Below, one piece after another: positions 2,825-60,884 of a stretch of 64,000 bases of DNA. The position numbers and the translations under genes are program-made. Numbering within the stretch: the first letter of the stretch is position 1; each line of letters begins with the position of its first letter. The stretch lies in contig LBWX01000003.1 in the NCBI GenBank assembly GCA_000995065.1, positions 153,284 to 217,283 on the forward strand, in the 5' to 3' direction. Under the pieces are notes generated by a model that searched no databases, had not been told where the DNA came from, and saw only the letters and a list, made by a program, of their open reading frames with translations. The stretch comes from a candidate division CPR2 bacterium GW2011_GWC2_39_35. Lineage in GTDB: Bacteria > Patescibacteriota > CPR2.

Positions 2825-5023
2825 TTATATATCATATTTTAACACCATCTTTACATCCAAAGCAATAACGCCCTTATTCCTCTCGTTAACTCTTAACGGA
2901 TTTATATCCACTTCCTCGATCTCGGGAAAATCAGTCATAAGTTTTGACAGCCTAATAATCGTGTCGGAAATGGCATCAATGTCATATGCTTCTCCGCCTC
3001 TAAATTCCTGGAGCAGTTTTGAGCTTTTTGTTTCGGCTATCATTTCTAAGGCTTCTTTTTTGGTAACAGGTGCGATTCTAAAAGCAACATCATGAATTAA
3101 TTCAACCATGATTCCACCCAATCCAAATACGATAACCGGCCCAAAAATCGGATCTCGTTTGCCGCCCACAATAACTTCCTGACCTTTTCTTACCATATGA
3201 TAAACCGTAATTCCTTCGATTCTAGCTTCGGGCATTTTTTTATTTACGCTAGCCATTATTTCCTTAAAGGCTTCTTTTACTTCAGTCTTGTTATTTAAAC
3301 CAATTTTTACGCCTCCAACATCCGTTTTATGAAGAATGTCCTGAGATGTAATTTTTAAGACTACCGGAAAACCAATACTCTGAGCTGCTTCGGCCGCTTC
3401 CTCCGTATTTTTAGTTAGCTGACTTTTTGCCACATTAACGCCGTAAGAACGTAAAATTTTAGCCGCCAAACTATCCAAAGAATCGCCCAAGTTAAAGATT
3501 CCGGCAACATGTGCCTCCCTTAAAAGATTATTAACTCGGTCCTTATTAATGTTCTCTGTAAGTATAAGATCGGTCTTATCTTTTCGATCTAGATATTCTG
3601 AATATTCAAACATCGCCTCAAAAGCCCGAACCGCCCTTTCCGGAAAATCAAACGTTGGAATTTTATTCTCCGCTAGAACTTTAACACCTTCTGAGATTTT
3701 CTTTCCGCCCATAAAAGAAGCAATAACCGGTTTTTTATATTTTCTTTGCATCGCCACTATCACCTCTGCCGTTTTTTTAACTTCGGTTGTTATTTGCGGC
3801 GTAGCGATAACAATCACGCCATCCACATTTTTATCGGCGAGAACCGCCTCGAGCCCAATCTTATACCGATCGGCCTTAGCATCTCCCACAAGATCCACCG
3901 GGTTATTGATACTTGCCATTTTTGGCAATTTTCGCTCTAAATATGCTTTAGTTATCGAATTTAATTTGGCAAGCTCCAGTTTGCTCTGAAAAATGGCATC
4001 AGCAGTCATGACTGACGGTCCGCCAGCATTGGCAATGATAGCAATTTTATTTCCCTTTAAAAGAGGCTCAAAAGCAAACACTTTGGCATAATCAAAAAGC
4101 TCCTCTAAGTTGTATGCTCTTATAATTCCGGCTTTTTTAAAAGCAGCTGATACAGCCGTTTCTGAACCCGCTAGGCTTCCCGTATGGGAAGCGGCAGCCT
4201 TTGCCCCCGCAGATGTTATCCCGGCTTTTAAAACAATTAAAGGTTTTTTGGCGGTAATTTTTTTAGCAAAGCGAATAAAATTATCCCCTTCGCTTATTCC
4301 CTCTAAATATCCCAGGATTACCTTGGCCGCATTATCATTTTCCCATTCCTGAAACAAATCAGATTCATCGATATCGGCTTTATTTCCCAAAGAAACAAAT
4401 CTCGAAAAACCAATATCGTTAGCATTAGCCCAATCTAGAATAGCCGTACAAACCGCTCCGGATTGAGAAAAAACCGCAATGTTATTTTTTTCCGGCATGC
4501 TTTGGGCAAAAGAGGCATTAAGCTTTTGGAAAGTATCGATATACCCCAAACAATTTGGTCCCAAGACTCGAATTTGATGGTCATTTGCAATTTCTTTTAT
4601 CTGTCGCTCCAGCTCTTTTCCTTTTCCGCCGATCTCCCCGAAACCGGCTGAAATAATAATCGCGGTTTTTATACCCTTAATACCGCATTGCTCCAAAACT
4701 TCCGGTACGTAAAAAGCCGGCACCAGAATAACGGCCATATCTACCGAATCCGGGATATGATGAATCGTCTGGTAGCACTTGTATCCAAGAATTTCTTCGG
4801 CTTTTGGATTGACCGGATAAATTTTACCCCTAAAACCGTATCTTTTAATATTTGCAAGCACCAAGAAACCAAGCTTATCCGGATCTCTGGAAGCCCCGAT
4901 TATAGCGATACTTTTTGGTTGGAATAATAAATTCTTTTTCACATAATGCCTTAAAATATAATTACTTTTGATTCGTCTCCAAAGCTTTAAACAGAAAAGA
5001 TGCTTTAAAATGACAAAATCCAA
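2825..5023 (-). CDS. acd: acetyl-CoA synthetase (ADP-forming), fused alpha/beta domains (CoA-binding + ATP-grasp)
   Basis: 732 aa; KSIAIIGAS CoA-binding N-terminus, succinyl-CoA-synthetase-like flavodoxin domain, C-terminal ATP-grasp; annotated start at 5023 may be too far upstream (overlaps inverted repeat). Confidence 0.8.
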   Translation of the reverse strand: MDFVILKHLFCLKLWRRIKSNYILRHYVKKNLLFQPKSIAIIGASRDPDKLGFLVLANIKRYGFRGKIYPVNPKAEEILGYKCYQTIHHIPDSVDMAVILVPAFYVPEVLEQCGIKGIKTAIIISAGFGEIGGKGKELERQIKEIANDHQIRVLGPNCLGYIDTFQKLNASFAQSMPEKNNIAVFSQSGAVCTAILDWANANDIGFSRFVSLGNKADIDESDLFQEWENDNAAKVILGYLEGISEGDNFIRFAKKITAKKPLIVLKAGITSAGAKAAASHTGSLAGSETAVSAAFKKAGIIRAYNLEELFDYAKVFAFEPLLKGNKIAIIANAGGPSVMTADAIFQSKLELAKLNSITKAYLERKLPKMASINNPVDLVGDAKADRYKIGLEAVLADKNVDGVIVIATPQITTEVKKTAEVIVAMQRKYKKPVIASFMGGKKISEGVKVLAENKIPTFDFPERAVRAFEAMFEYSEYLDRKDKTDLILTENINKDRVNNLLREAHVAGIFNLGDSLDSLAAKILRSYGVNVAKSQLTKNTEEAAEAAQSIGFPVVLKITSQDILHKTDVGGVKIGLNNKTEVKEAFKEIMASVNKKMPEARIEGITVYHMVRKGQEVIVGGKRDPIFGPVIVFGLGGIMVELIHDVAFRIAPVTKKEALEMIAETKSSKLLQEFRGGEAYDIDAISDTIIRLSKLMTDFPEIEEVDINPLRVNERNKGVIALDVKMVLKYDI

Positions 5024-5096
5024 ATTTCAAATTCCAAATGAAATCCAAATGATTAAATTTCAAATAAAAAGACTTTTGACATTTGGATTTTGTCAT
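5010..5096. terminator. perfect 16-bp inverted repeat (atgacaaaatccaaat / atttggattttgtcat) with ~55-nt AT-rich loop between PfkB kinase and acd genes
   Basis: arms at 5010-5025 and 5081-5096 are exact reverse complements. Confidence 0.4.
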
Positions 5097-5152
5097 TGAT
5101 TTGACATTTGATATTTGAGCTTTGGCATTAATTTTATTTTTCATTTTCCCTC

Positions 5153-6127: not shown

Positions 6128-7379
6128 GCGTTGTTATCCTTCCGGATTTTTTTAAGACTGTTTTAAAAATTTCTCTCCCCCTTAGATGTTTTAGGGCGCC
6201 AAAACGACAACCCGTCTCGCCGAATTCACAAATACTATCTCTATTTTTACCATCGTAGATTAGAAAAGGAACCGGATCTTCGGCATGATCCTGAAGCTCG
6301 CATGCCGTAGTATGATCACCAGATATAAATATTAAAGTATTTTTTAGCTTTCGGAAAGCCTTAAGCTCTCGGTCTATTTTTTCAATCAATATCTTTTTCT
6401 CCATATAATCTCCTCGCTCTTCAGCACAAGTATCGACAGCCTTAAAATGGAGATAAACAAAATCATGATTTTTTAAAGCCTTTTTGGCCGCCACAACTTT
6501 GCTTTTATAGTTAGAACTGCTAAGACCATTAGCGCCATTCACCTTTATAAAATCCATCCCTAAATACCTTGCGATCCCAATATAAAGAGGCGCTCCGGCT
6601 ACCGCAGCAGCCCTTAAACCATATTTTTCTTTATAAGAAGGAACCTTAAAAAAGGTGCCGGATCCTCTTGTTAAAAGAAAATTAACGGGTAAAAGCCCTT
6701 TTTTAATTCTTTCTTCATTTAAAGGTAAGGTATTTAAATATTTATTGACTTCAAGCTGATATTTCCACAATGCCTTTGCGGTTTTAACGGAAGCCTGGGA
6801 ACTATCCAAGGGTTGAGGGTGCAAAACCTTGGCGTCCTTTTTGTGAGGGCCATCTTTATGGGGGTCCGTGTCCGACACCATAGACGAATGAGCATGAACA
6901 TTCTCGCTCAAATCTTTACCGCTTATAATAAGTACGCCGCGATGAGCCAAACCGGAGTAAATTTCAAAATTAAAACCGTCCACCTCCCTAGTTCCAATTG
7001 CTTCAGAAAATTCTATTGTTCTAGAAATATTCCCTGCCCGCGGATCCACAACTCGCAAATCTTCGTCTACCGTGCCGAAATCAACTCGTAAGGCAAGATC
7101 CCCGGGATTTAATTTGATCCCAAGCCCCAAGGCCTCCAAAACACCGCGTCCGGGATAGTCCTTAATATAATGATAGCCAAAAAGAGCCAAATGACATTCT
7201 TCGGAAGTGGGATAGACGCCTTTTGGCAAGGCATTTTGGACTCCGCAAATACCATTTTGGGCAAAAAAATCCATGTTTGGAGTCCGAGCCGCTTCTAGCG
7301 GCGTTTTACCCTCCAAATTTTTTATGGGCCTGTCGCCCAAACCATCTAAAATTACAAAAAGAATTTTTTTAAACGCCAT
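6120..7379 (-). CDS. apgM: 2,3-bisphosphoglycerate-independent phosphoglycerate mutase, archaeal type
   Basis: 419 aa; N-terminal ILFVILDGLGDRP metalloenzyme motif and overall ApgM-like sequence; overlaps neighbours on both sides. Confidence 0.85.
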   Translation of the reverse strand: MAFKKILFVILDGLGDRPIKNLEGKTPLEAARTPNMDFFAQNGICGVQNALPKGVYPTSEECHLALFGYHYIKDYPGRGVLEALGLGIKLNPGDLALRVDFGTVDEDLRVVDPRAGNISRTIEFSEAIGTREVDGFNFEIYSGLAHRGVLIISGKDLSENVHAHSSMVSDTDPHKDGPHKKDAKVLHPQPLDSSQASVKTAKALWKYQLEVNKYLNTLPLNEERIKKGLLPVNFLLTRGSGTFFKVPSYKEKYGLRAAAVAGAPLYIGIARYLGMDFIKVNGANGLSSSNYKSKVVAAKKALKNHDFVYLHFKAVDTCAEERGDYMEKKILIEKIDRELKAFRKLKNTLIFISGDHTTACELQDHAEDPVPFLIYDGKNRDSICEFGETGCRFGALKHLRGREIFKTVLKKSGRITTHV

Positions 7380-8085
7380 CTCCCTTTAGTTTTCTTAATT
7401 TTTTATAAAGTATAAACGACGGATTGGTAATTAAAATAAACGAGAGAAAAGTGACTAAAATGCTACTTATTATTGGCAAGGATGTAAGAATAATGCTAAC
7501 TACGATTATTGGCAGATAGAGAACGACGAGAGTCACGAAAATTTTTCCCTTATAGCCGCTTGTAATTGCTTTACTCTCCCTTAAAGCCTCTAGGCCTCGC
7601 TTTCCCTCAGAGACATAAATATAAGGCGCCATAAAATACATCACCATAAAAATAAAGCCCGGAATTATAAGCAAAATAAACCCTAGAAGAACTTTTAGGC
7701 CGTAAAGAATAGTTACGAAAAGAAATCCCCAGAACTTTCCTTTTGTTTCCTTAAAGATTCCGGATAACTGGCCCTTAATTAGATTCTTACCCGAAATAAT
7801 CTTATCCAAAGACTGTAGATACATCAAAAGAGGGTAAATCGAAAGGATCGAAAGAAATATTACAAGAACAAGGACAAAAAGATCACTAATAAGTTCTTGG
7901 CCATTTGTATCGTCAAAGAATAAACCGCCAAGACTCGCAATTAAATTTATCATGCCAGTTATAGCAATAAGAATAAGAAGAGGTTTAAAATTTGTCTTAA
8001 ATAAACCCCACGATTCACCAACTAAATCAATAATTTTAGGAAAACTATTTTCTTCGGAAGCACTCTTGTTATTTCCTTTACTCAT
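7369..8085 (-). CDS. hypothetical polytopic membrane protein
   Basis: 238 aa, ~6 hydrophobic segments; translationally overlapped with apgM inside the glycolytic operon. Confidence 0.5.
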   Translation of the reverse strand: MSKGNNKSASEENSFPKIIDLVGESWGLFKTNFKPLLILIAITGMINLIASLGGLFFDDTNGQELISDLFVLVLVIFLSILSIYPLLMYLQSLDKIISGKNLIKGQLSGIFKETKGKFWGFLFVTILYGLKVLLGFILLIIPGFIFMVMYFMAPYIYVSEGKRGLEALRESKAITSGYKGKIFVTLVVLYLPIIVVSIILTSLPIISSILVTFLSFILITNPSFILYKKLRKLKGDGV

Positions 8086-13272: not shown

Positions 13273-13467
13273 TTATCACCCTCCTTTTAGTAAAAATTTA
13301 CTTAGCTTATTTATTGATCAATTATTTTTAAACATCTAAATACATAAAACAAACAACTAGCCGTTGCTAAAAATATTATAAACCCTTATCTAAGAGGAAG
13401 GAAGATTAATATTTTTTATAAAGAAGTTTTGTTTTCCCAATTTAGATTTTGGGGTTATTATAGATTC

Positions 13468-14751
13468 ATGAAAACAAAATGGATCATGTTTGCCGCGGTT
13501 ATTTTTTCGCTTTGCCTTAAAAATGCAGTTCTGGCGAGCAACGAACAAGAGTTCCTTTGGGGGGTCGCCACATCCGCCCATCAGATTGAGGGGGGAGATA
13601 TCCCCAGCGATTGGTACGAGTTCGAAAAACAAGGAAAAGCGCCGGATGGCAGCACCACCGAAAAAGCTGTGGACGGATATAATTTAGCATTTGAAGACAT
13701 CAAACTCTTAAAAGAATTGGGCGTAAATTCCTATCGTTTTTCTATCGAGTGGGCAAGAGTGGAACCGGAAAATAACAAATTTGACGAGGCAGCACTTAAG
13801 CATTATCACGATTTAATAGTTGCGCTAAAGAATAATGGCATCACTCCGGTTGTCACCCTTCATCACTTTACTAATCCTAAATGGATTGCGGATAAAAGTA
13901 GCTGGACTAACAAAGAAACGGCAAACGAATTTGTAGAATATGCGAGGAAGATAATTGACCAAAACAATAATGACGTTACTTATTGGATTACAGTAAACGA
14001 GCCAAATGTTTTCTTAAGTTATAGCTATATCTTTGGCAATTTTCCGCCTTACAAAAAGAAAGATATTTTGGTTTACAAAAAAGCCATAGAAAATGTCTTT
14101 GAGGCTCACCGTCAAATTTACCGATATATCCATGAAAAAAATAATAAAGCCCAGGTGAGCATCGCCTACAATTTTAGCGACTTTAAGCCGAAAACGTACC
14201 GGCTAATTGATGTTTTATCAGCCAGAATTTGTAATTATGCCTACTCCTGGTACTGGACCGATCAGGTTAAGAACGAGATGGATTTTGTGGGCATTAATTA
14301 TTATTTTAGCCGTTACGTTGGCCTCGACTATCCGTTTTCTTCCCAATATTACAAGTACACCGACGTTTCCGAATGGAATCAGTGGCCGCAAAACATCCAG
14401 CCCGAAGGCTTGGAGCATATTACCCTTATGGCCCATAATCGCTACAAAAAACCAATAATTATTACCGAAAATGGATTACCTGATAAAGATGATGATAAAA
14501 GACCGGATTTCATTAAAAATCACATCGAAGCTTTAAACACCGCAAAAAGCAAAGGGGTCGAAATCAACGGCTATTTCTACTGGTCTCTAATGGATAATTT
14601 CGAATGGTGGGGCGGCTATAAAGATAAATACGGTCTTTATGAAGTGGATTATAATACCATGAAGCGGCGTCCTCGCCCCAGCGCATTTTATTACCGAGAC
14701 CTTATTATGAACTATCAAAAGAACGAGAATTTATCTCTACCGACATACTAA
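13468..14751 (+). CDS. glycoside hydrolase family 1 beta-glucosidase with N-terminal signal peptide
   Basis: GH1 signatures TVNEPN (acid/base Glu) and IITENG (nucleophile Glu); start chosen at MKTKWIMFAAVIFSLCLKNAVLAS (ORF-track start 13429 is alternative). Confidence 0.85.
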   Translation: MKTKWIMFAAVIFSLCLKNAVLASNEQEFLWGVATSAHQIEGGDIPSDWYEFEKQGKAPDGSTTEKAVDGYNLAFEDIKLLKELGVNSYRFSIEWARVEPENNKFDEAALKHYHDLIVALKNNGITPVVTLHHFTNPKWIADKSSWTNKETANEFVEYARKIIDQNNNDVTYWITVNEPNVFLSYSYIFGNFPPYKKKDILVYKKAIENVFEAHRQIYRYIHEKNNKAQVSIAYNFSDFKPKTYRLIDVLSARICNYAYSWYWTDQVKNEMDFVGINYYFSRYVGLDYPFSSQYYKYTDVSEWNQWPQNIQPEGLEHITLMAHNRYKKPIIITENGLPDKDDDKRPDFIKNHIEALNTAKSKGVEINGYFYWSLMDNFEWWGGYKDKYGLYEVDYNTMKRRPRPSAFYYRDLIMNYQKNENLSLPTY

Positions 14752-14789
14752 CACCCATTTCGCACTTCCTTATTGTTCGACTCCTCAAA

Positions 14790-14846
14790 GAGGGTGGAGA
14801 ACTTAAATCCCCGAATTTCAGGGCTCCGTTTCACTTCGCTCGAAGA
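14790..14846. repeat. dispersed intergenic repeat family (tattgttcgac ... gtggagaact ... cgtttcacttcgctcg), copy 1; related copies at 53120-53190 and partial at 23177-23193
   Basis: 16-mer cgtttcacttcgctcg present three times in window; copies 1 and 3 share additional upstream blocks. Confidence 0.6.
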
Positions 14847-14956
14847 GTAATTATGGGTCATTAATACCAAGTGCGAAATGCGTGATTAAAAGATCTAATA
14901 ACAGTCTTCATTCTAGTATTTTGCTTTTTTATCCACAACGATTATCCACAGAAAAA

Positions 14957-15823
14957 CTAGGCTTTTCCACAGCTACCAAAAAGCTTCAACTTTTCATCCA
15001 CAACCTTCTTTACTTCTTCTTTGGCTGGACCCAAAAAATTATAGGGTACATGCTCTTCCGGATTTTTCTCCAAATGTTCTCTTATAGAATTTGTAAAAGC
15101 AAGCCGGAGTTCGGTATTAATATTTACCTTGGCAACGCCATTAAAAATGGCTTGCCTTAACTGTTTTTCGGGACACATGGAGCCGCCGTGCAAAACCAAA
15201 GGAATGCCAAGAAGGTGGTTTATTCTGCTTATCCTTTCAAGGTCTAGCTTTGTCTCCCCCTTATAAGCCCCGTGTGATGTTCCTACAGAGATTGCCAATG
15301 AATCTATTTTTGTCTCTTTATAAAAAAGCTGGGCTTCTTCCGGATTCGTAAAAAAATCGGAACGGTTTGAATCTTCGCCTTCGAATTTAGGTGTTAAGAC
15401 CTTACCTACTTCTCCCTCAACCGACACTCCATGCTTATGAGCTAATGCCACAACTTTTTTAGTCACATTCATATTTTCCTCGAAGGGAAGACCCGAGCCA
15501 TCGATATGAACCGAGGTATAACCAGCTTCGATAGCTTCCCGAACCGTTTCATAACTATCCCCATGATCTAAATGAATCGAGATTGGAATATTATACTTTT
15601 CTGCCGCCCGTCTTACAATAGCTGCCAGAAGTTCCGCCCCCGCATGATGCATCTCGGACTTTGACGATTCTACAATTACGGGCGACTTCTGCTTTGCACC
15701 AGCCTCGATAATTGCCATCGCAATTTCCAAGTTGGGCGCATTAAATCCCCCCACCGCATAACGGTGATAATAAGCATGTTCTAAAATTTTTTTGTTATTT
15801 GATAGCATTCCCAACTTACCCAA
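14957..15823 (-). CDS. fba: fructose-bisphosphate aldolase, class II
   Basis: 288 aa; YAVGGFN N-terminus, HLDHG and HGGSG metal-binding motifs of class II aldolases. Confidence 0.85.
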   Translation of the reverse strand: MGKLGMLSNNKKILEHAYYHRYAVGGFNAPNLEIAMAIIEAGAKQKSPVIVESSKSEMHHAGAELLAAIVRRAAEKYNIPISIHLDHGDSYETVREAIEAGYTSVHIDGSGLPFEENMNVTKKVVALAHKHGVSVEGEVGKVLTPKFEGEDSNRSDFFTNPEEAQLFYKETKIDSLAISVGTSHGAYKGETKLDLERISRINHLLGIPLVLHGGSMCPEKQLRQAIFNGVAKVNINTELRLAFTNSIREHLEKNPEEHVPYNFLGPAKEEVKKVVDEKLKLFGSCGKA

Positions 15824-21211: not shown

Positions 21212-21251
21212 AATGACGGTTTTTATACGATCGTTTAATTTTCGTCATTTA
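21212..21251. promoter_or_regulatory. conserved 40-bp palindromic motif (copy 1)
   Basis: aatgacggtttttatacgatcgtttaattttcgtcatttaa. Confidence 0.5.
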
Positions 21252-22413: not shown

Positions 22414-23094
22414 TTAATTATTCTCCTCCCACTTTATAAGCCGGCCGTCTTCTATGTAGGCGATTCGGTTAGCAATAGATTTTATGCGGTCGTCATGACT
22501 TACGACAATAATACTTTTGCCATGATCCAAGGCAACAGAACTTAATAAGTCCATAACCTCCCTACCCGTCTTTTTATCCAAATTGGCTGTCGGTTCATCG
22601 GCTAAGATTACCGTGGGGTCGTTCATCAAGGCTCTGGCAATTGCTATTCTTTGTCTCTCTCCGCCTGATAAATCATTAATATCGGCGTTAAGTCTCTTTT
22701 CTAGACCTAATGCAATAAGTAGTTCCGTCGCTTTTTTCTTTTTGTCCCTCACTCCAAATCCGGCTATCATCACGTTTTCTACGGCTGATAAATTAGAAAG
22801 CAAATTAAAAGATTGGAAAATAAAACCGATGTTTTTTCTTCTAAACTTAGTTAGATATTTAGGACTTATCTTTTGCATCTCTTTACCCAGAAACAATAAA
22901 TTACCGGACGATGGCGTTAAAAGCCCGCCAAGCATGGTAAGAAAAGTGGTTTTACCGCTTCCGGATGGTCCCATTATCATAAGCAGCTCCCCTTCTTTAA
23001 GGGAAAAATCGATGCCCTGAACTGCCCGCACTTCGATTGGCTTGCCGGCGTCAAATACTTTGGTCAAATTTTTGGTTTCTATAATTGTTTTCAT
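22414..23094 (-). CDS. ABC transporter ATP-binding protein (FtsE/LolD/MacB-type)
   Basis: 226 aa; Walker A GPSGSGKT, signature LSGGERQR, Walker B ILADEPT. Confidence 0.85.
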   Translation of the reverse strand: MKTIIETKNLTKVFDAGKPIEVRAVQGIDFSLKEGELLMIMGPSGSGKTTFLTMLGGLLTPSSGNLLFLGKEMQKISPKYLTKFRRKNIGFIFQSFNLLSNLSAVENVMIAGFGVRDKKKKATELLIALGLEKRLNADINDLSGGERQRIAIARALMNDPTVILADEPTANLDKKTGREVMDLLSSVALDHGKSIIVVSHDDRIKSIANRIAYIEDGRLIKWEENN

Positions 23095-23122: not shown

Positions 23123-23176
23123 GTTTTAGTTCTCGACTTCGTTTTAGTTCTCGACTTCGTTTTAGTTCTCGACTTC
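23123..23176. repeat. tandem repeat: 3 perfect copies of 18-bp unit gttttagttctcgacttc, followed by a degenerate fourth copy gtttcacttcgctcgaac
   Basis: read directly in the 152-bp spacer between ABC permease and ATPase genes. Confidence 0.8.
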
Positions 23177-23246
23177 GTTTCACTTCGCTCGAACAGTATT
23201 TCCTATCGACCCATTGACCCATTAACCGATTCGCCAATTTGCCTAT

Positions 23247-24356
23247 CTATGCCCTAAAAACCTCCGCCGGATCAATCGACATAAGCCTCTTAAGCGGAAT
23301 TAAAGAAGAAATAGCCGCCATTACCAATGTAGCGATACATACAAAAATAAAATTAGCCGTCGGTACCTCGTAAATAAAATCCGGGACTTTGCTTTGAACC
23401 ACATCAATAATTAAGGGCATCAGCAAAATTCCGATGACAAGCCCTACGATTCCGGCGATAACAGCTTGCATTACTGCCACCAAAAAAAGTTGCTTGTTTG
23501 TATAGCCTATCGCCTTTAAAACCCCGTACTCCTTTGACCTTTCCAAAACTCCGGTAAAAATAGTGATGCCGATTACCGCAAGCCCGATAGAAAAAGCAAT
23601 AACCATCAGAACCCCCAGAATCGGCAAAAAGGCATTTTTTACGATTCCGGCATTAGTGTCCATGAGTCTTTGCTTAGTTATAACTTCGATATTGGGAATC
23701 TTGCCAAGCGACACCTCGGCTTTCCCAATGTCCTTAGCCGAAACGACAAAAAAATTAACATGAGTTTTGGCATCCGCAATCTTTATAACCTCTTCCATTT
23801 GAGCGTAGCCATAAGTAAAACCAAGGAAGTTTCCGCCGGTACTAATTCCAACAATCTTGTAGTTAGCATCTTTAATAATCAAGCTGTCACCGACTTTAAG
23901 CTTGTTTTTGCCGACAAAAGATTTATCAACAATAATCTCGCCTTTTTGTGGCTTACCCTTACCATCAATCACCTCAAAAGGTCTTATAACCCCCTCTTTA
24001 TCCATACCGATTAGAGCCAGGAAATTATCCTTCCCGTTTACATCGAGGCTTACCTGATGCACCAAGAAAGGCGTCACCCGGCTTACCCCTTCCGAGTTTT
24101 TAATTTGAGTCTCAAGGCTTTTGGGAATAACCGAAATTCCGCGGCTTAGATCGATATTTCCTTTGGTACCGATCCAATAATCGGATTCGATAACCTTCAA
24201 AAATTTTGTCATCTCGGCCCGCCAGCCCTCGTAAAGTCCCATTAGAATAAAAACCAAAATCACCGAAAGAGTCACTCCGCCGATGGTTATCAGAAACCTA
24301 GTTTTTTCTTTAAATAAATTGCGCCTGGCGATTAAAACAATGCTCATTCTAAACAA
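23247..24356 (-). CDS. ABC transporter permease, FtsX/MacB-like (4 TM with large extracytoplasmic loop)
   Basis: 369 aa; N-terminal TM, ~200-aa loop, three C-terminal TMs typical of FtsX-like permeases. Confidence 0.8.
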   Translation of the reverse strand: MFRMSIVLIARRNLFKEKTRFLITIGGVTLSVILVFILMGLYEGWRAEMTKFLKVIESDYWIGTKGNIDLSRGISVIPKSLETQIKNSEGVSRVTPFLVHQVSLDVNGKDNFLALIGMDKEGVIRPFEVIDGKGKPQKGEIIVDKSFVGKNKLKVGDSLIIKDANYKIVGISTGGNFLGFTYGYAQMEEVIKIADAKTHVNFFVVSAKDIGKAEVSLGKIPNIEVITKQRLMDTNAGIVKNAFLPILGVLMVIAFSIGLAVIGITIFTGVLERSKEYGVLKAIGYTNKQLFLVAVMQAVIAGIVGLVIGILLMPLIIDVVQSKVPDFIYEVPTANFIFVCIATLVMAAISSLIPLKRLMSIDPAEVFRA

Positions 24357-45094: not shown

Positions 45095-45187
45095 TTTTTT
45101 CGTCATTCCCGTGAAAACGGGAATCCGGGAAAGCTTGGGAAGGAATGGGGCATCTGGATTCCCACCTCCGCGGGAATGACGAAAAAG
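45095..45187. repeat. compound palindromic REP/MITE-like element (outer 17-nt perfect inverted arms tttttcgtcattcccg / cgggaatgacgaaaaa with internal hairpins)
   Basis: direct reading; core gtcattcccg / cgggaatgac shared with second copy at 60923-60983. Confidence 0.65.
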
Positions 45188-52058: not shown

Positions 52059-53033
52059 TTAGCTCTTGCTTACTATTTGTAATATTAATAATTTTTCTAA
52101 TTTTTGTCCCAATTCTCTTATTTCGATTAAGTCTTTAATGTCCTTTTTGCCGCTAATATCCTTGTAGCACTCATCCCAAACATTCATTAACTTTTCTTCT
52201 AGCCTATCTCTTTTTATCTTCGCTATAAGTTCTTCACTACTTATTGCTTCCAAATTATCGACGTCTAAAATATTAGAATCCAGCGCATAAGCAAAAATCA
52301 AGCTTGTCAAATCCTTCTCGTCTATTTCCCTTTCCCACGTACTGATCCAATTTCCAATCCTGCCCATCTTCTGTGCCTTTAGAATTATGTCTCTTATTTC
52401 TTTTAATTCTTTAGGCGTTAATCTGCCGTTTCCGGCCATTAATTCCATAATATTATAAAGCATCATTTGCATCGAGCATGGAAAATAAGTCCAGTAATTT
52501 TCCGCGCTTATTAAAAAAGGGTGGCTGCTCACTAAAATAGCAAATCTCATAGAATTAAATATCTGGTCAATTTCAAAGCTAAGAATGTTTTTAAAATCGC
52601 TATAAAAAGGAAAATTGGCTATTTTTTTATTAATATGCCGAAAAATATCTAAAGCAAATGTCGAAAGAGTATCTAAATTTTCCCTCCCTAAATAATTATC
52701 GTTAGAAATAGCTTTGTATATTTCTTCTAAAAGCTCGCTGTCTTTTTTTAAATCCGCAATATCGTCTATGATGACGACAAACATACTGAATAAAAATTTT
52801 GCTTCCTCAACGTCTTTTTCATAGCTTTTATCATAATCAACAAAAGGAGAGACATTTTTAATAACACAATAGGTAAACGGCCATATTATGTTACTTCTTA
52901 CTCCGCCGGCCTTTACGTATTCATCCACCCATTTTTGAATGTTTTGAGGTAAAGGCACGCTCATCATGTTATCTAACTCAGACCTGATACTTTCCGGACT
53001 TAGTTTCGATTTTATTTCTTCGATTTTCCTCAT
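52059..53033 (-). CDS. class I terpene synthase-like protein (putative terpene cyclase)
   Basis: 324 aa all-alpha; DDIAD (aa 90-94) and NWISTWERE (aa 228-236; N..T...E = NSE/DTE motif), 138-aa spacing as in bacterial sesquiterpene synthases. Confidence 0.5.
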   Translation of the reverse strand: MRKIEEIKSKLSPESIRSELDNMMSVPLPQNIQKWVDEYVKAGGVRSNIIWPFTYCVIKNVSPFVDYDKSYEKDVEEAKFLFSMFVVIIDDIADLKKDSELLEEIYKAISNDNYLGRENLDTLSTFALDIFRHINKKIANFPFYSDFKNILSFEIDQIFNSMRFAILVSSHPFLISAENYWTYFPCSMQMMLYNIMELMAGNGRLTPKELKEIRDIILKAQKMGRIGNWISTWEREIDEKDLTSLIFAYALDSNILDVDNLEAISSEELIAKIKRDRLEEKLMNVWDECYKDISGKKDIKDLIEIRELGQKLEKLLILQIVSKS

Positions 53034-53119
53034 AAATATATTTTATCATTTTAAAGCTACCGCTGAAACCAAAAAAACGTAAACAACTTTTTTCGTTCAT
53101 CTTTCGCTACTTGTGTGCT

Positions 53120-53190
53120 TACATATTGTTCGACCTTGTGGAGAACTGCATTAAAGTACTTCTAGACCACGTTTCACTTCGCTCGCCATA
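53120..53190. repeat. dispersed intergenic repeat family, copy 3
   Basis: atattgttcgaccttgtggagaactgcattaaag...cgtttcacttcgctcg. Confidence 0.6.
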
Positions 53191-53390
53191 CCATCCGTAT
53201 GGGAAGAAAAAAGCAACTGCTCAACCCCATCGTCATTGCGAGGAGTTCATACGACGAAGCAATCTCGCTCCAGTTCCAGACAAAGATCGCCACGCTCATT
53301 TCATTCGCTGAGGGTGACAGTTGTGAGCAGTTACGAATAAAATAGGTAGTTTAGGTGTCAAATGCGAAAGTCGCGTTCAGTAGTATTGGA

Positions 53391-53912
53391 TCAATTGGAT
53401 ATTGTATTTAAACTTTCTAACCTCTCTAGAGCAATAATAAACCACGGCGTATATTTATCCGGATTCTCTTCCATGTCTTTTTTGAGATCATTAATGTTTA
53501 CCCATTTCCAATCTGCTACTTCCTCTTTAACGGGTTTCACGTCTCCATCATACTCCCCGATTAAAGTGGCGCAAACCTCGGACTCCGCTCCCACATCTTT
53601 ATAGGCGGCATGGTACTGAAACTTATCTGCCATTTTCAGTTTGCAGGTAAATCCTAATTCGTCCAACAATCTTCTTTCCCCTGCCTTCTCATAACTTTCA
53701 TTCTCCCTTGGATGGCTGGCACAGGTATTGTCCCATATAAGAGGCCAAAGCATTTTTTTCTCGCTTCTTTGCTGAATCAAAAGTTCACCCTTTTTATTAA
53801 AAATAAAATCTGCAAAAGCCCGATGAAGCTTTCCTTCATCCAGATGCGCTTTTACTTTTTCTTCCAATCCAATATTTTTGTCGTTTTCATCAACCAGTAT
53901 TACCTTTTCCAT
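53391..53912 (-). CDS. idi: isopentenyl-diphosphate delta-isomerase, type 1 (Nudix fold)
   Basis: 173 aa; HRAFADFIFN, NTCASHP Cys motif and WKW/E-rich catalytic region typical of IDI-1. Confidence 0.8.
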   Translation of the reverse strand: MEKVILVDENDKNIGLEEKVKAHLDEGKLHRAFADFIFNKKGELLIQQRSEKKMLWPLIWDNTCASHPRENESYEKAGERRLLDELGFTCKLKMADKFQYHAAYKDVGAESEVCATLIGEYDGDVKPVKEEVADWKWVNINDLKKDMEENPDKYTPWFIIALERLESLNTISN

Positions 53913-58894: not shown

Positions 58895-58930
58895 AAATAA
58901 ATCTGGTTACTTTCATTATTTTTTTATTTA

Positions 58931-58995
58931 TACTCATGCCCAATCTCCCTCGCTATCTCTGACCACTAGCAAATCACGCACTATTTCTTCCATCA
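58931..58995. repeat. ~65-bp direct repeat copy A (degenerate duplicate of the 3' end of plsC); partner at 60280-60345
   Basis: tactcatgcccaatctc + cgctatctc + gcactatttcttc blocks shared with 60280-60345. Confidence 0.6.
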
Positions 58996-59209: not shown

Positions 59210-59249
59210 ATGACGGATTTTCTACGATCGTGGTAATTACGTCATTTAA
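59210..59249. promoter_or_regulatory. conserved 40-bp palindromic motif TGACGG-N-TACGATCGT-N-CGTCATTTAA (second copy at 21212-21251)
   Basis: two near-identical occurrences in intergenic DNA, internal ACGATCGT palindrome flanked by TGACG/CGTCA inverted arms. Confidence 0.5.
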
Positions 59250-60263: not shown

Positions 60264-60884
60264 CTAAGTTTTGTGCTCGTACTCATGCCCAATCTCACGC
60301 GCTATCTCAGGCATTAAGATGTCGTGCACTATTTCTTCGGGTGTTTTGTCAGCAATTTCTTTATAGGAAATCGGTTCCAAGAATTTAACCCTACAAATCC
60401 GCTTTATTCTGGGAAACTTATGATGCCTTCCAAAAACGTGATGCGAATTTTCTATAGCTACAGGCAAAATATCTACCTGATTTTGCAGAGCCATTCTAGC
60501 CACGCCCCTATATGCCTTAAGCGGTTTTCCATCGTAGCTCCTGGTTCCTTCCGGGAAAAGAACTAAGATATGGCCTCTTCCTAAAACATCAGCCGCTGCC
60601 TGATAAACCATCTTCTTATCTTTACTAAAACGATCCACCTTTATTTGTCCGGTTATACGCATAATAAACCTAAAGAAAGGGTTTCTATAGATCCAGTCTG
60701 CCGCCAAAAAGAAAAGTCTTCTTCTAACCGCCGCACCAAGAAATGCAAAATCCAAATAACTCGCGTGATTAGCTGCAATTATAATCGGCCCCTTTCTGGG
60801 AATATTATGCTTTCCCTCAACCCTTTCTATCCAAAAAAGTTTAATCAGGGGGCTTAAAAGAATTTTTAGAACTCGATACAGCAT
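60264..60884 (-). CDS. plsC: 1-acyl-sn-glycerol-3-phosphate acyltransferase
   Basis: 206 aa; NHASYLD (HX4D) and FPEGTRS motifs. Confidence 0.8.
   Translation of the reverse strand: MLYRVLKILLSPLIKLFWIERVEGKHNIPRKGPIIIAANHASYLDFAFLGAAVRRRLFFLAADWIYRNPFFRFIMRITGQIKVDRFSKDKKMVYQAAADVLGRGHILVLFPEGTRSYDGKPLKAYRGVARMALQNQVDILPVAIENSHHVFGRHHKFPRIKRICRVKFLEPISYKEIADKTPEEIVHDILMPEIAREIGHEYEHKT

Follow-up and report, generated by a model that had tools for sequence, protein, structure and literature searches.

Three intergenic copies of an invariant 16-mer in a CPR2 bacterium probably belong to a divergent branch of the CGTC-tagged REP/SRM hairpin repeats

Introduction

What kind of element carries the same 16 nucleotides three times in the non-coding DNA of one 64-kb stretch of a candidate division CPR2 genome? 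The stretch, referred to below as the window (G+C content of about 39%), comes from the bacterium GW2011_GWC2_39_35. An initial annotation, made from the letters alone, had described the 16-mer as the mark of a dispersed repeat family and had named three options for it: a miniature mobile element, a small RNA family, or a conserved transcription signal. In this work, the three copies are compared with related loci in other genomes and with known systems of hairpin repeats. The family is real, and it is of a known kind of element rather than a new one. The three copies are probably modular, REP/NIME-like DNA hairpin repeats of a divergent branch of the CGTC-tagged REP/SRM group, deposited as non-autonomous units.

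CGTC-tagged REPs are characterized by an unpaired CGTC or TGTC tag, an 8-9 bp stem with AT at its start, a 4-5 nt loop, and a CCA tail. They occur mostly as head-to-head dimers in five phyla, have no dedicated transposase, and include dRS3 of Neisseria as well as RPE-4 and RPE-6 of Rickettsia (Di Nocera et al. 2013, PMC3733652). A longer form of dRS3 is known as the Neisseria Transformation Sequence (NTS), CGTCATTCCCGCGMAVGCGGGAATCYRG; together with its degenerate relatives, the Ssn-related motifs (SRM), it flanks the genes of small single-domain GIY-YIG nucleases (cd10448) called Ssn (Chenal et al. 2025, PMC11893778). One of them, SsnA, cuts ssDNA adjacent to the motif. SsnA requires the 3 nt before the palindrome for cleavage and the C that follows it for binding, whereas the loop may be lengthened or dispensed with (PMC11893778). 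In N. meningitidis, the NTS/SsnA pair limits the integration of transforming DNA (PMC11893778). The published SRM pattern is HGTCWYN(0-2)YYVSBRHN(0-5)WNVSBRGN(0-2)RNCYNB, and the motifs are hairpin-forming inverted repeats of 20-50 nt (PMC11893778).

Occurrence and genomic setting of the 16-mer

The 16-mer CGTTTCACTTCGCTCG occurs exactly three times in the window, each time on the plus strand (Table 1). The copies begin at 14827, 23176, and 53170, each one position away from where the initial annotation had placed it. By chance none would be expected: an exact match appeared in none of 100 dinucleotide-shuffled windows. The window holds no variant with one or two mismatches. All three sites are intergenic, as had been claimed: copy 1 lies between convergent genes, copy 2 is intercistronic, and copy 3 is located between two genes of the minus strand. 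Identity among the three copies is 100% over the 16-mer and falls to about 35-70% over the adjoining 20 nt.

The proteins encoded in the window are present in identical form in Rifle groundwater assemblies and in GCA_000995395.1, GCA_001771115.1, and GCA_003500505.1. The three loci are the same in all assemblies of the species, which thus contain no filled-versus-empty site polymorphism. An apparent 149-bp difference in length between two assemblies, L001 and L002, was traced to undetermined bases (N) in the scaffold of L002; once aligned, the spacer does not differ among the three assemblies.

Table 1. Positions of the repeat copies, their parts, neighbouring genes, and other hairpin units in the window
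Feature	Positions	Strand	Sequence or remark
GH1 family-1 glycosidase gene, convergent neighbour of copy 1	13429-14751	+	
Copy 1, complete composite (~133 bp)	14752-14884	+	nhmmer 14750-14884, E=7e-36; 1 nt after GH1 stop codon
Copy 1, outer inverted repeat, left arm	14752-14767	+	CACCCATTTCGCACTT; pairs with 14869-14884
Copy 1, short unit	14771-14802	+	TATTGTTCGAC-(TCCTCAAAGAGGG hairpin)-TGGAGAAC; conserved in 11 relatives
Copy 1, long unit	14815-14851	+	ATTTC-AGGGCTC-CGTTTCACTTCGCTCG-AAG-AGTAAT; 16-mer at 14827-14842
Copy 1, outer inverted repeat, right arm	14869-14884	+	AAGTGCGAAATGCGTG
Class-II fructose-bisphosphate aldolase (FBA) gene, convergent neighbour of copy 1	14957-15823	-	
ABC ATPase gene, neighbour of copy 2	22414-23094	-	
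Copy 2, tandem repeat	23123-23176	+	GTTTTAGTTCTCGACTTC, 3 perfect 18-bp copies; TRF: period 18, 3.2 copies, 100% match
Copy 2, solo long unit	23163-23200	+	stem GTTC/GAAC; nhmmer 23163-23209, E=8.5e-8, long-unit part only; 16-mer at 23176-23191
FtsX-type permease gene, neighbour of copy 2	23247-24356	-	
NTS-like Ssn-related motif	45101-45128	+	CGTCATTCCCGTGAAAACGGGAATCCGG; no other site in the window fits the published SRM pattern (expected from shuffles: 0.11)
Inverted partner of the NTS-like motif	45154-45181	-	CGTCATTCCCGCGGAGGTGGGAATCCAG; head-to-head with the 45101-45128 unit, ~25 nt apart
Hypothetical gene, neighbour of copy 3	52059-53033	-	
Copy 3	53105-53226	+	nhmmer E=3e-21; without right outer repeat
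Copy 3, short unit	53124-53146	+	without internal hairpin
Copy 3, long unit	53158-53185	+	16-mer at 53170-53185
Copy 3, nested 17-nt hairpin	53186-53202	+	CCATACCATCCGTATGG; inserted between TCG and GAAG
GTCAT-tagged long-loop unit	53231-53267	+	CGTCATTGCGAGGAGTTCATACGACGAAGCAATCTCG (CGTCATTGCGAGG...CGAAGCAATCTCG); next to copy 3
Degenerate inverted unit resembling the 16-mer long unit	53284-53320	-	GTCAC tag, ends GGGTGACAG; plus strand AGATCGCCACGCTCATTTCATTCGCTGAGGGTGACAG; compared by eye with the general units
NUDIX gene, neighbour of copy 3	53391-53912	-	

Organization of the three copies

Alignment of the window copies with their relatives demonstrates that the 16-mer does not stand by itself but forms the conserved core of a "long unit". 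This unit is part of a two-unit, imperfectly palindromic element, in whose complete form an inverted "short unit" precedes the long one. When the window is searched with an nhmmer profile built from 11 relatives (described below), a complete copy, a nearly complete one, and a partial one are recovered and nothing else; a solo short unit was found by profile search 66 bp past the left end of the window (L160, 10857-10893). The upstream blocks that the initial annotation had seen in both copy 1 and copy 3 are indeed common to them, with ATTGTTCGAC at 14772 and 53125 and GGAGAAC at 14796 and 53140. The larger inverted repeat that it had drawn around copy 1 is real as well and extends to 16 bp with one mismatch; its left arm as first described, however, lies at 14756-14767 (right arm at 14869-14880) and not at 14765. 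The stems of the three window copies are 4 bp long (TTTC/GAAG, GTTC/GAAC, and CTTC...GAAG). No direct repeat flanks any of the copies, so that the target-site duplications suggested as a check are absent.

Copy 2 is a solo long unit preceded by a tandem repeat, which is the 5' part of the long unit in triplicate. Two other readings were considered and rejected: a CRISPR remnant, as there are no spacers and the 18-bp repeats are contiguous, and an integron attC site, as the R' and R'' boxes are missing. The spacer that holds copy 2 separates the FtsX and ABC genes by 152 nt, in comparison with 3, 42, and 55 nt in the orthologous operons of three other Patescibacteria. This difference points to copy 2 as DNA inserted into the operon, in a comparison that concerns spacer length only and in which the closest FtsX homologue is 48% identical.

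Copy 3 carries a nested 17-nt hairpin, and an identical insertion is found at the same site in L142, a locus of CPR2 GWC2_39_10. Two further hairpin units follow copy 3 in the same spacer, which is thus a mosaic of at least four units. Elsewhere in the window, an NTS-like unit and its inverted partner form a pair (45101-45181) with no gene between them. This pair has the tag, stem, loop, and tail of CGTC-tagged REPs, and its first unit differs from the NTS consensus by one compensatory stem pair, C:G to T:A.

Relatives in CPR2, Howlettbacteria, and Roizmanbacteria

A metagenome scan with TATTRTTCGA-N(20-50)-16-mer recovered 14 loci, to which a genome scan added L040 (bacterium CG2_30_37_16), L100 (Roizmanbacteria), and L116 (CPR2 GWC2_39_10). 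Together they represent 11 distinct versions of the element, located on CPR2, Howlettbacteria, and Roizmanbacteria contigs and built on a common architecture. The related loci have no neighbour genes in common with the window; the family therefore occupies unrelated loci in different genomes. CPR2 GWC2_39_10 alone has at least three copies of the 16-mer element (L116, L142, and L143). As an unbiased check on the conservation of the 16-mer, the examined loci were also searched by the short unit alone; only one extra match appeared, a solo unit. Because the alignment was ascertained on the 16-mer and TATTRTTCGA, the invariance of these two stretches within it is by construction.

The pairing of the element was evaluated on a structure composed of the outer repeat, the stem that closes the doublet, and the hairpin of the short unit. 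In this CPR2-type structure, 84.5% of cells pair, in contrast to 34-52% (maximum 51.5%) when the 3' partner is slid. Seven pairs are changed on both sides, a count that was reached in 3/500 shuffles. Compensatory variants of the short-unit hairpin include a change from TCCTC/GAGGG to TCTAC/GTAGG, CCCGA/TCGGG, and TCCAC/GTGGG. The outer inverted repeat flanks the relatives L138, L141, L145, and L147 too, and its arms change in concert, reading TTTACGCA/TGCGTAAA in L145 and CCCTTTCCACT/AGTGGGAAGGG in L137. At the loci examined, the outer repeat CACGCATTTCGCACTT is seen nowhere apart from the element, and it does not form the end of any longer one.

The 16-mer in other phyla

When one genome per species was scanned (596 Gb), at least 120 loci with the 16-mer came up, a number to be read against our own estimate that a random 16-mer would have a few hundred chance matches in a sample of this size. 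Many of the matches are coding DNA of G+C-rich genomes, including one conserved coding context (L038, L043, and L091). At least 36 matches are of another kind. In these general units of about 40 nt, the identical 16-mer stands in the context AGAT-T/C-N-C...16-mer...N-A/G-ATGAC(A/G), i.e., AGAT-stem...stem'-ATGAC. The units are distributed over at least eight phyla. Their hosts include Bacteroidota (Pedobacter, Niabella, Flavobacterium, Sphingobacteriaceae, and Chitinophagales), Patescibacteria (Saccharibacteria, Peribacteria, Gracilibacteria, and Moranbacteria), Balneolaceae, Melioribacteraceae (Ignavibacteriota), Verrucomicrobiota, Acidobacteriota, Bacillota, Chloroflexota, and a gammaproteobacterium. 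This base-for-base sharing with repeats of many other phyla had escaped the initial annotation. Copies thus recur in related and in unrelated genomes, with a conserved structure, as expected if the repeat family that it had proposed exists. In the plasmid and phage collections, neither the canonical pair described below nor copy 1 had a match, and four matches of the 16-mer on viral contigs lie outside any repeat context.

The stem of the general units has five bases on the 5' side of the loop, whose partners are the final G of the 16-mer and the four bases that follow it. The variants of this stem covary (ATTGC/GCAAT, ATTCC/GGAAT, ATTTC/GAAAT, and ATCCC/GGGAT). Pairing holds in 92% of cells, in comparison with 28-45% in slid controls, and 27 cells are changed on both sides, a number that none of 500 shuffles reached. 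The units lie in all orientations relative to the neighbouring genes and are usually head-to-head with a shorter unit, GTCAT-stem-GAGCGAAGC...-stem'-ATCT; canonical pairs of this kind are L064, L087, L097, and L083. As ssDNA, the Pedobacter pair L064 folds into one long hairpin (-34.4 kcal/mol, z=-8.1), in which CTTCGCTCG, the 3' half of the 16-mer, is part of the stem and the 5' part of the 16-mer (CGTTTCA) falls within a 10-nt bulge. By its letters, the long unit looks like a short unit with an expanded pentamer tract, from CGAAG to CGAAG-TGAAA-CGAAG on the tag strand.

Why the 16-mer itself is invariant is accounted for neither by pairing nor by canonical Ssn recognition; in the CPR2 copies it stands without its former pairing partner. 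Some other factor may read the word, or the sample may be biased through searching with the 16-mer.

Small GIY-YIG nuclease genes near the repeats

Recurrent neighbour genes were sought at 55 loci, and the small GIY-YIG genes were the only meaningful ones; clusters of response-regulator and RbfA-like neighbours proved to be unrelated housekeeping genes. The GIY-YIG genes encode proteins of 93-99 aa and are flanked by, or abut, hairpin units in sister CPR2, Balneolaceae, and Sphingobacteriaceae. The Howlettbacteria contig L149, itself the site of a 16-mer composite element, has the gene of a GIY-YIG protein of 93 aa (Pfam E=1e-16) between TGTCATTCCCGCGAAGGCGGGAATCCAG and an inverted CGTCATTCCCGCGCAGGCGGGAATCCAG. 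The latter is an exact match to the NTS consensus, and the other flank differs from it at the first base only. A protein 82% identical to that of L149, P0123, is found in CPR2 GWC2_39_10 (L159) and in a second CPR2 genome; NTS units surround its gene as well, and the loop of one of them contains a 29-nt insertion. NTS-flanked GIY-YIG genes are thus present on three sister CPR2/Howlettbacteria contigs (L149, L154, and L159).

Further from CPR2, a GIY-YIG gene of Balneolaceae (L066) abuts an array with a period of about 355 bp that includes 16-mer units. In Sphingobacteriaceae (L096), such a gene is flanked by repeats of the GTCATCCTGAGCCTGTCGAAGGAC type, i.e., of the short-unit type, whose GAGC..TGTCGA loop matches the short units of L087 (Peribacteria) and L100 (Roizmanbacteria). 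With proteins of Nitrosomonas, Desulfococcus, Leptolyngbya, and Nitrospinae, the CPR GIY-YIG protein shares 70-77% identity. Such identity across phyla points to horizontal spread of the gene together with the motif, which would also be the reason for the cross-phylum identity of the repeats. Nothing informative matched the GIY-YIG proteins in PDB or NCBIfam, and a weak tblastn match in L139 turned out to be the N-terminus of UvrC and not an Ssn. Within the window and 10 kb on either side (84 kb), neither a GIY-YIG gene nor a transposase was found.

Comparison with known repeat systems

The tag, stem, and tail of the family are akin to those of NTS and SRM. Like SRM, the general 16-mer units carry (C/T)GTCAT as their 5' tag, open the stem with AT, have a C directly behind the palindrome, and have ATC(T/C) as their tail; they occur in head-to-head pairs and in arrays beside small GIY-YIG genes. 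They differ from SRM in a 22-nt loop of conserved sequence, where the SRM pattern allows 0-5 nt, and in a stem of 5 bp instead of 7-9. The window copies are further removed: they have ARTAAT instead of the ATGAC tag, no conserved C after the stem, and an added outer inverted repeat. None of the three (0/3) was matched when the window was scanned with the SRM pattern, and their tag strand reads ATTACT-CTTC... or AATACT-GTTC..., with no GTC before the palindrome. Since the GTC tag is absent, the SRM pattern fails, and the surrounding 84 kb hold no nuclease gene, we class the window copies as a divergent, probably decaying, non-autonomous variant.

The likeness to CGTC-tagged REPs lies in the head-to-head build of copies 1 and 3 (short unit plus inverted long unit) and, for the general units, in the tag, the AT at the start of the stem, the occurrence in several phyla including Bacteroidetes, and the lack of a dedicated transposase. 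Unlike these REPs, the 16-mer units combine a stem of 5 bp with a loop of 22 nt; the window copies are tagless, with a 4-bp stem and a loop of about 22 nt. With the NIME of Neisseria and the BIMEs of E. coli, the family shares a build as intergenic mosaics of alternating hairpin units (53105-53320 in the window; the arrays L066 and L080), although the unit sequences differ and the BIME partners IHF, gyrase, and RayT are not implicated for the 16-mer family. The REPIN/RAYT system is similar in that its inverted hairpin doublets are believed to be mobile in the form of ssDNA hairpins and to leave no target duplication, and in that a single domesticated nuclease gene is flanked by its own repeats. 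In contrast to it, the 16-mer family has no GTAG or GTGG tag; no Y1 transposase (Pfam Y1_Tnp) is present in the window annotations or near the units, and GTCATT and AATGAC are absent from the published tables of RAYT-associated repeats. A DNA-uptake sequence was also considered and rejected, the copies being too few and not lineage-specific.

Alternative explanations

One alternative, an unlikely one, is that the element acts as RNA, either as a cis-acting structured RNA (a 3'-end or intercistronic hairpin that stabilizes or terminates transcripts) or as a small RNA family. REPs in E. coli act as such cis RNA hairpins, which counts in its favor, and compensatory changes together with a variable inserted hairpin are typical of structured RNAs. 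Copy 1 folds better than shuffles on both strands, with -40.9 kcal/mol (z=-3.6) on the plus strand and -44.5 kcal/mol (z=-3.7) on the minus strand; as ssDNA, it reaches z=-2.4. In 7 of about 12 cases (the three window copies and nine related loci), an opposite-strand ORF on the 3' side of the 16-mer ends beside the element, which thus comes after the 3' end of that gene. However, copies 2 and 3 fold no better than shuffles, and neither does any of the three window copies once the outer inverted repeat is left out (z=0.65, 1.3, and -0.07).

The mismatches in the stems bear on the same question. In the CPR2 type, G:T exceeds A:C by 15:7 on the plus strand, as an RNA would have it, but this wobble-favored strand is antisense to the neighbour genes at copies 2 and 3, and the ratio in the general type is 3:3. 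These counts give no clear single-strand RNA signature and no strong strand asymmetry. The general units, lying in all orientations and having no G:T bias, are better explained by a palindrome that matters at the DNA level than by a one-strand RNA. In Rfam 15, which was searched with the window and 13 loci at the gathering threshold and at E<=5, nothing was found at the elements, and tRNA alone reached the threshold. Scans of the three copies revealed no shared promoter and no T-run terminator in common; one weak terminator site is present, inside copy 1 only. Of the options named by the initial annotation, the small RNA family is thus left with nothing in support, given the lack of an Rfam match, the mixed orientation, and the weak wobble asymmetry, and the conserved transcription signal has no shared promoter or terminator to rest on.

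The remaining option, the miniature mobile element, comes closest to what was found, as the element is modular, one copy is inserted into an operon, and the loci are unrelated. A classical MITE is nevertheless improbable. Under that explanation, the 16-bp outer repeats would be the ends recognized by a DDE-type transposase encoded elsewhere, and the SRM-like units would be passengers. A length of about 130 bp, non-coding content, dispersal over unrelated intergenic loci, and the existence of truncated copies are features shared with bacterial MITEs such as Correia/NEMIS and Nezha. So are the terminal inverted repeats of the complete copy, which recur in the four flanked relatives named above with both arms changing in concert. 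Against it, every copy is without a target-site duplication or direct flanking repeat and no cognate IS is found, which is why the element is not regarded as a classical MITE. Moreover, the outer repeat was never seen apart from the element, copies 2 and 3 and several relatives keep the inner units without one or both outer repeats, and the inner units are themselves dispersed repeats that occur alone.

Finally, a sequence-specific dsDNA protein-binding site (an operator, a promoter element, or a DNA-uptake-type signal) would fit an invariant 16-mer amid diverging flanks, as expected of a recognized word, but it is highly improbable, given that the 16-mer is not palindromic, is not set at any constant distance from gene starts or in any constant orientation to them, is flanked by convergent genes in the case of copy 1, has only three copies per 64 kb, and recurs in at least eight phyla always within a hairpin unit, unlike lineage-specific operators or uptake sequences.

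Proposed origin of the window copies

The reading that we prefer, i.e., divergent REP/SRM-type hairpin repeats, is probable and runs as follows. The canonical form, distributed over many phyla, is a head-to-head pair with the outer ends GTCAT...ATGAC that forms a single long ssDNA hairpin, and the 10-nt bulge, including CGTTTCA, would derive from expansion of a YTTCR pentamer tract. Such units are likely to be cognate sites of small single-domain GIY-YIG ssDNA endonucleases (Ssn), whose genes, typically flanked by units, appear to travel between phyla along with them. In the CPR2 lineage, the element would then have diverged: the tag may have changed from ATGAC to ARTAAT and the stem may have been reduced to 4 bp, while the short unit would have acquired a hairpin and the element as a whole an additional outer inverted repeat of 16 bp. 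The window copies would be non-autonomous units, deposited in spacers, one of them within an operon, in a way that creates no target duplication; they seem partly decayed, with one solo unit and one truncated copy. Directly observed are the family, its anatomy, the covariation of its stems, its kinship with NTS and SRM in tag, stem, and tail, and the Ssn-type genes that such units flank in sister genomes. We infer that the window copies arose through Ssn-linked processing of ssDNA, and that whatever action they may still have is confined to ssDNA or RNA hairpins.

A broader idea goes beyond this, and we regard it as possible but rather doubtful. According to it, the 16-mer, read as (YTTCR)3, would mark a distinct pan-bacterial class of long-loop or bulged ssDNA hairpins that escapes the present definitions of SRM and REPs; its identity in at least eight phyla would be due to a partner that reads the bulge, and the CPR2 composite would be a lineage-specific re-tooling of this class. 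If true, the partner could come from a sub-clade of Ssn-type nucleases whose specificity is new, or it could be another kind of ssDNA-binding protein, and the ARTAAT tag and outer stem of the CPR2 form would suit a diverged nuclease in organisms that depend on DNA uptake.

Significance

As REP/SRM-type repeats, the copies and the general units would extend the reach of the repeats that were linked in 2025 to site-specific ssDNA nucleases to CPR/Patescibacteria and Bacteroidota, adding forms with long conserved loops, bulged pairs, and composites. These forms are missed by the published search pattern, and therefore the censuses of motifs and of nuclease/site pairs are probably incomplete. For genome annotation, recognizing the family avoids spurious small ORFs and false calls of a "novel sRNA" in intergenic DNA. 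A 16-mer that is identical across phyla, and identical even in decaying copies, also presents a concrete puzzle. Ssn nucleases act on incoming ssDNA, and CPR bacteria are thought to be reliant on uptake; repeats of this kind could thus shape recombination in their reduced genomes.

Repeats and palindromes around the intergenic family

Besides the copies of the 16-mer long unit, several other repeated elements were found in and next to the window (Table). Copy 2, a solo long unit, is directly followed by an 8-bp tandem repeat that shares its operon spacer. Just beyond the left end, a solo short unit, of the kind that stands inverted before the long unit in complete elements, lies directly after a ferredoxin gene, and its inner hairpin represents an additional compensatory variant.

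Both copies of the palindromic repeat, which are 83% alike across a 40-nt repeat, occupy intergenic spacers between divergent genes, ahead of tRNA-Glu and a NUDIX gene; this palindrome resembles the operator of a dimeric regulator. CGTCAT is also read at its ends. Of the 40-nt direct repeat, one copy precedes a gene start, and the second falls where an acyltransferase ORF has its 3' end. The 23-nt inverted repeat occupies an intergenic spacer containing many tandem repeats of 7-14 nt. Its arms end in AATGACAAAA and TTTTGTCATT, another GTCAT-type end.

Table. Repeats and motifs in the window, and related loci outside it.
Feature	Location	Details
Inverted repeat, 23 nt	5009-5031, 5075-5097	arms 96% complementary
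Palindromic repeat, 36 bp	21213-21248, 59210-59245	ATGACGG...TACGATCG...CGTCAT
Tandem repeat, 8 bp	23208-23231	GACCCATT x3
NTS-like Ssn-related motifs, head-to-head	45101-45128 (+), 45154-45181 (-)	
Direct repeat, 40 nt	58920-58959, 60269-60308	83% identical (…TACTCATGCCCAATCTC.C.CGCTATCTC)
Solo short unit	L160 10857-10893	TATTGTTCGACTCCACGAAGTGGGTGGAGAAC; 66 bp outside left end
Small GIY-YIG (Ssn-type) genes	L149 (Howlettbacteria) 7710-7991; L159 (CPR2) 4001-4291	proteins P0121-P0240
Tandem array	L066 (Balneolaceae) 6380-7660	period ~355 bp

NTS-like motifs and Ssn-type genes

The window also carries a pair of motifs resembling the Neisseria Transformation Sequence (NTS), separated by a gene-free spacing of ~25 nt. 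The plus-strand motif differs from the Neisseria NTS consensus solely by a compensatory change of one stem pair, from C:G to T:A.

In the Balneolaceae genome, each period of the tandem array contains four different GTCAT-type units; one of these is the 16-mer unit, and another has a hairpin nested in it. This array, which is organised like a NIME, stops at a distance of 55 nt from a GIY-YIG gene.

The small Ssn-type GIY-YIG protein of Howlettbacteria and CPR2 (Ssn proteins being ssDNA endonucleases) is 70-77% identical to proteins of Nitrosomonas, Desulfococcus, Leptolyngbya, Nitrospinae and Planctomycetes, and the motifs flanking its gene in CPR genomes match the Neisseria NTS consensus exactly. 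This protein identity and these exact flanking motifs suggest that the module of Ssn-type gene and NTS was recently transferred horizontally across phyla.
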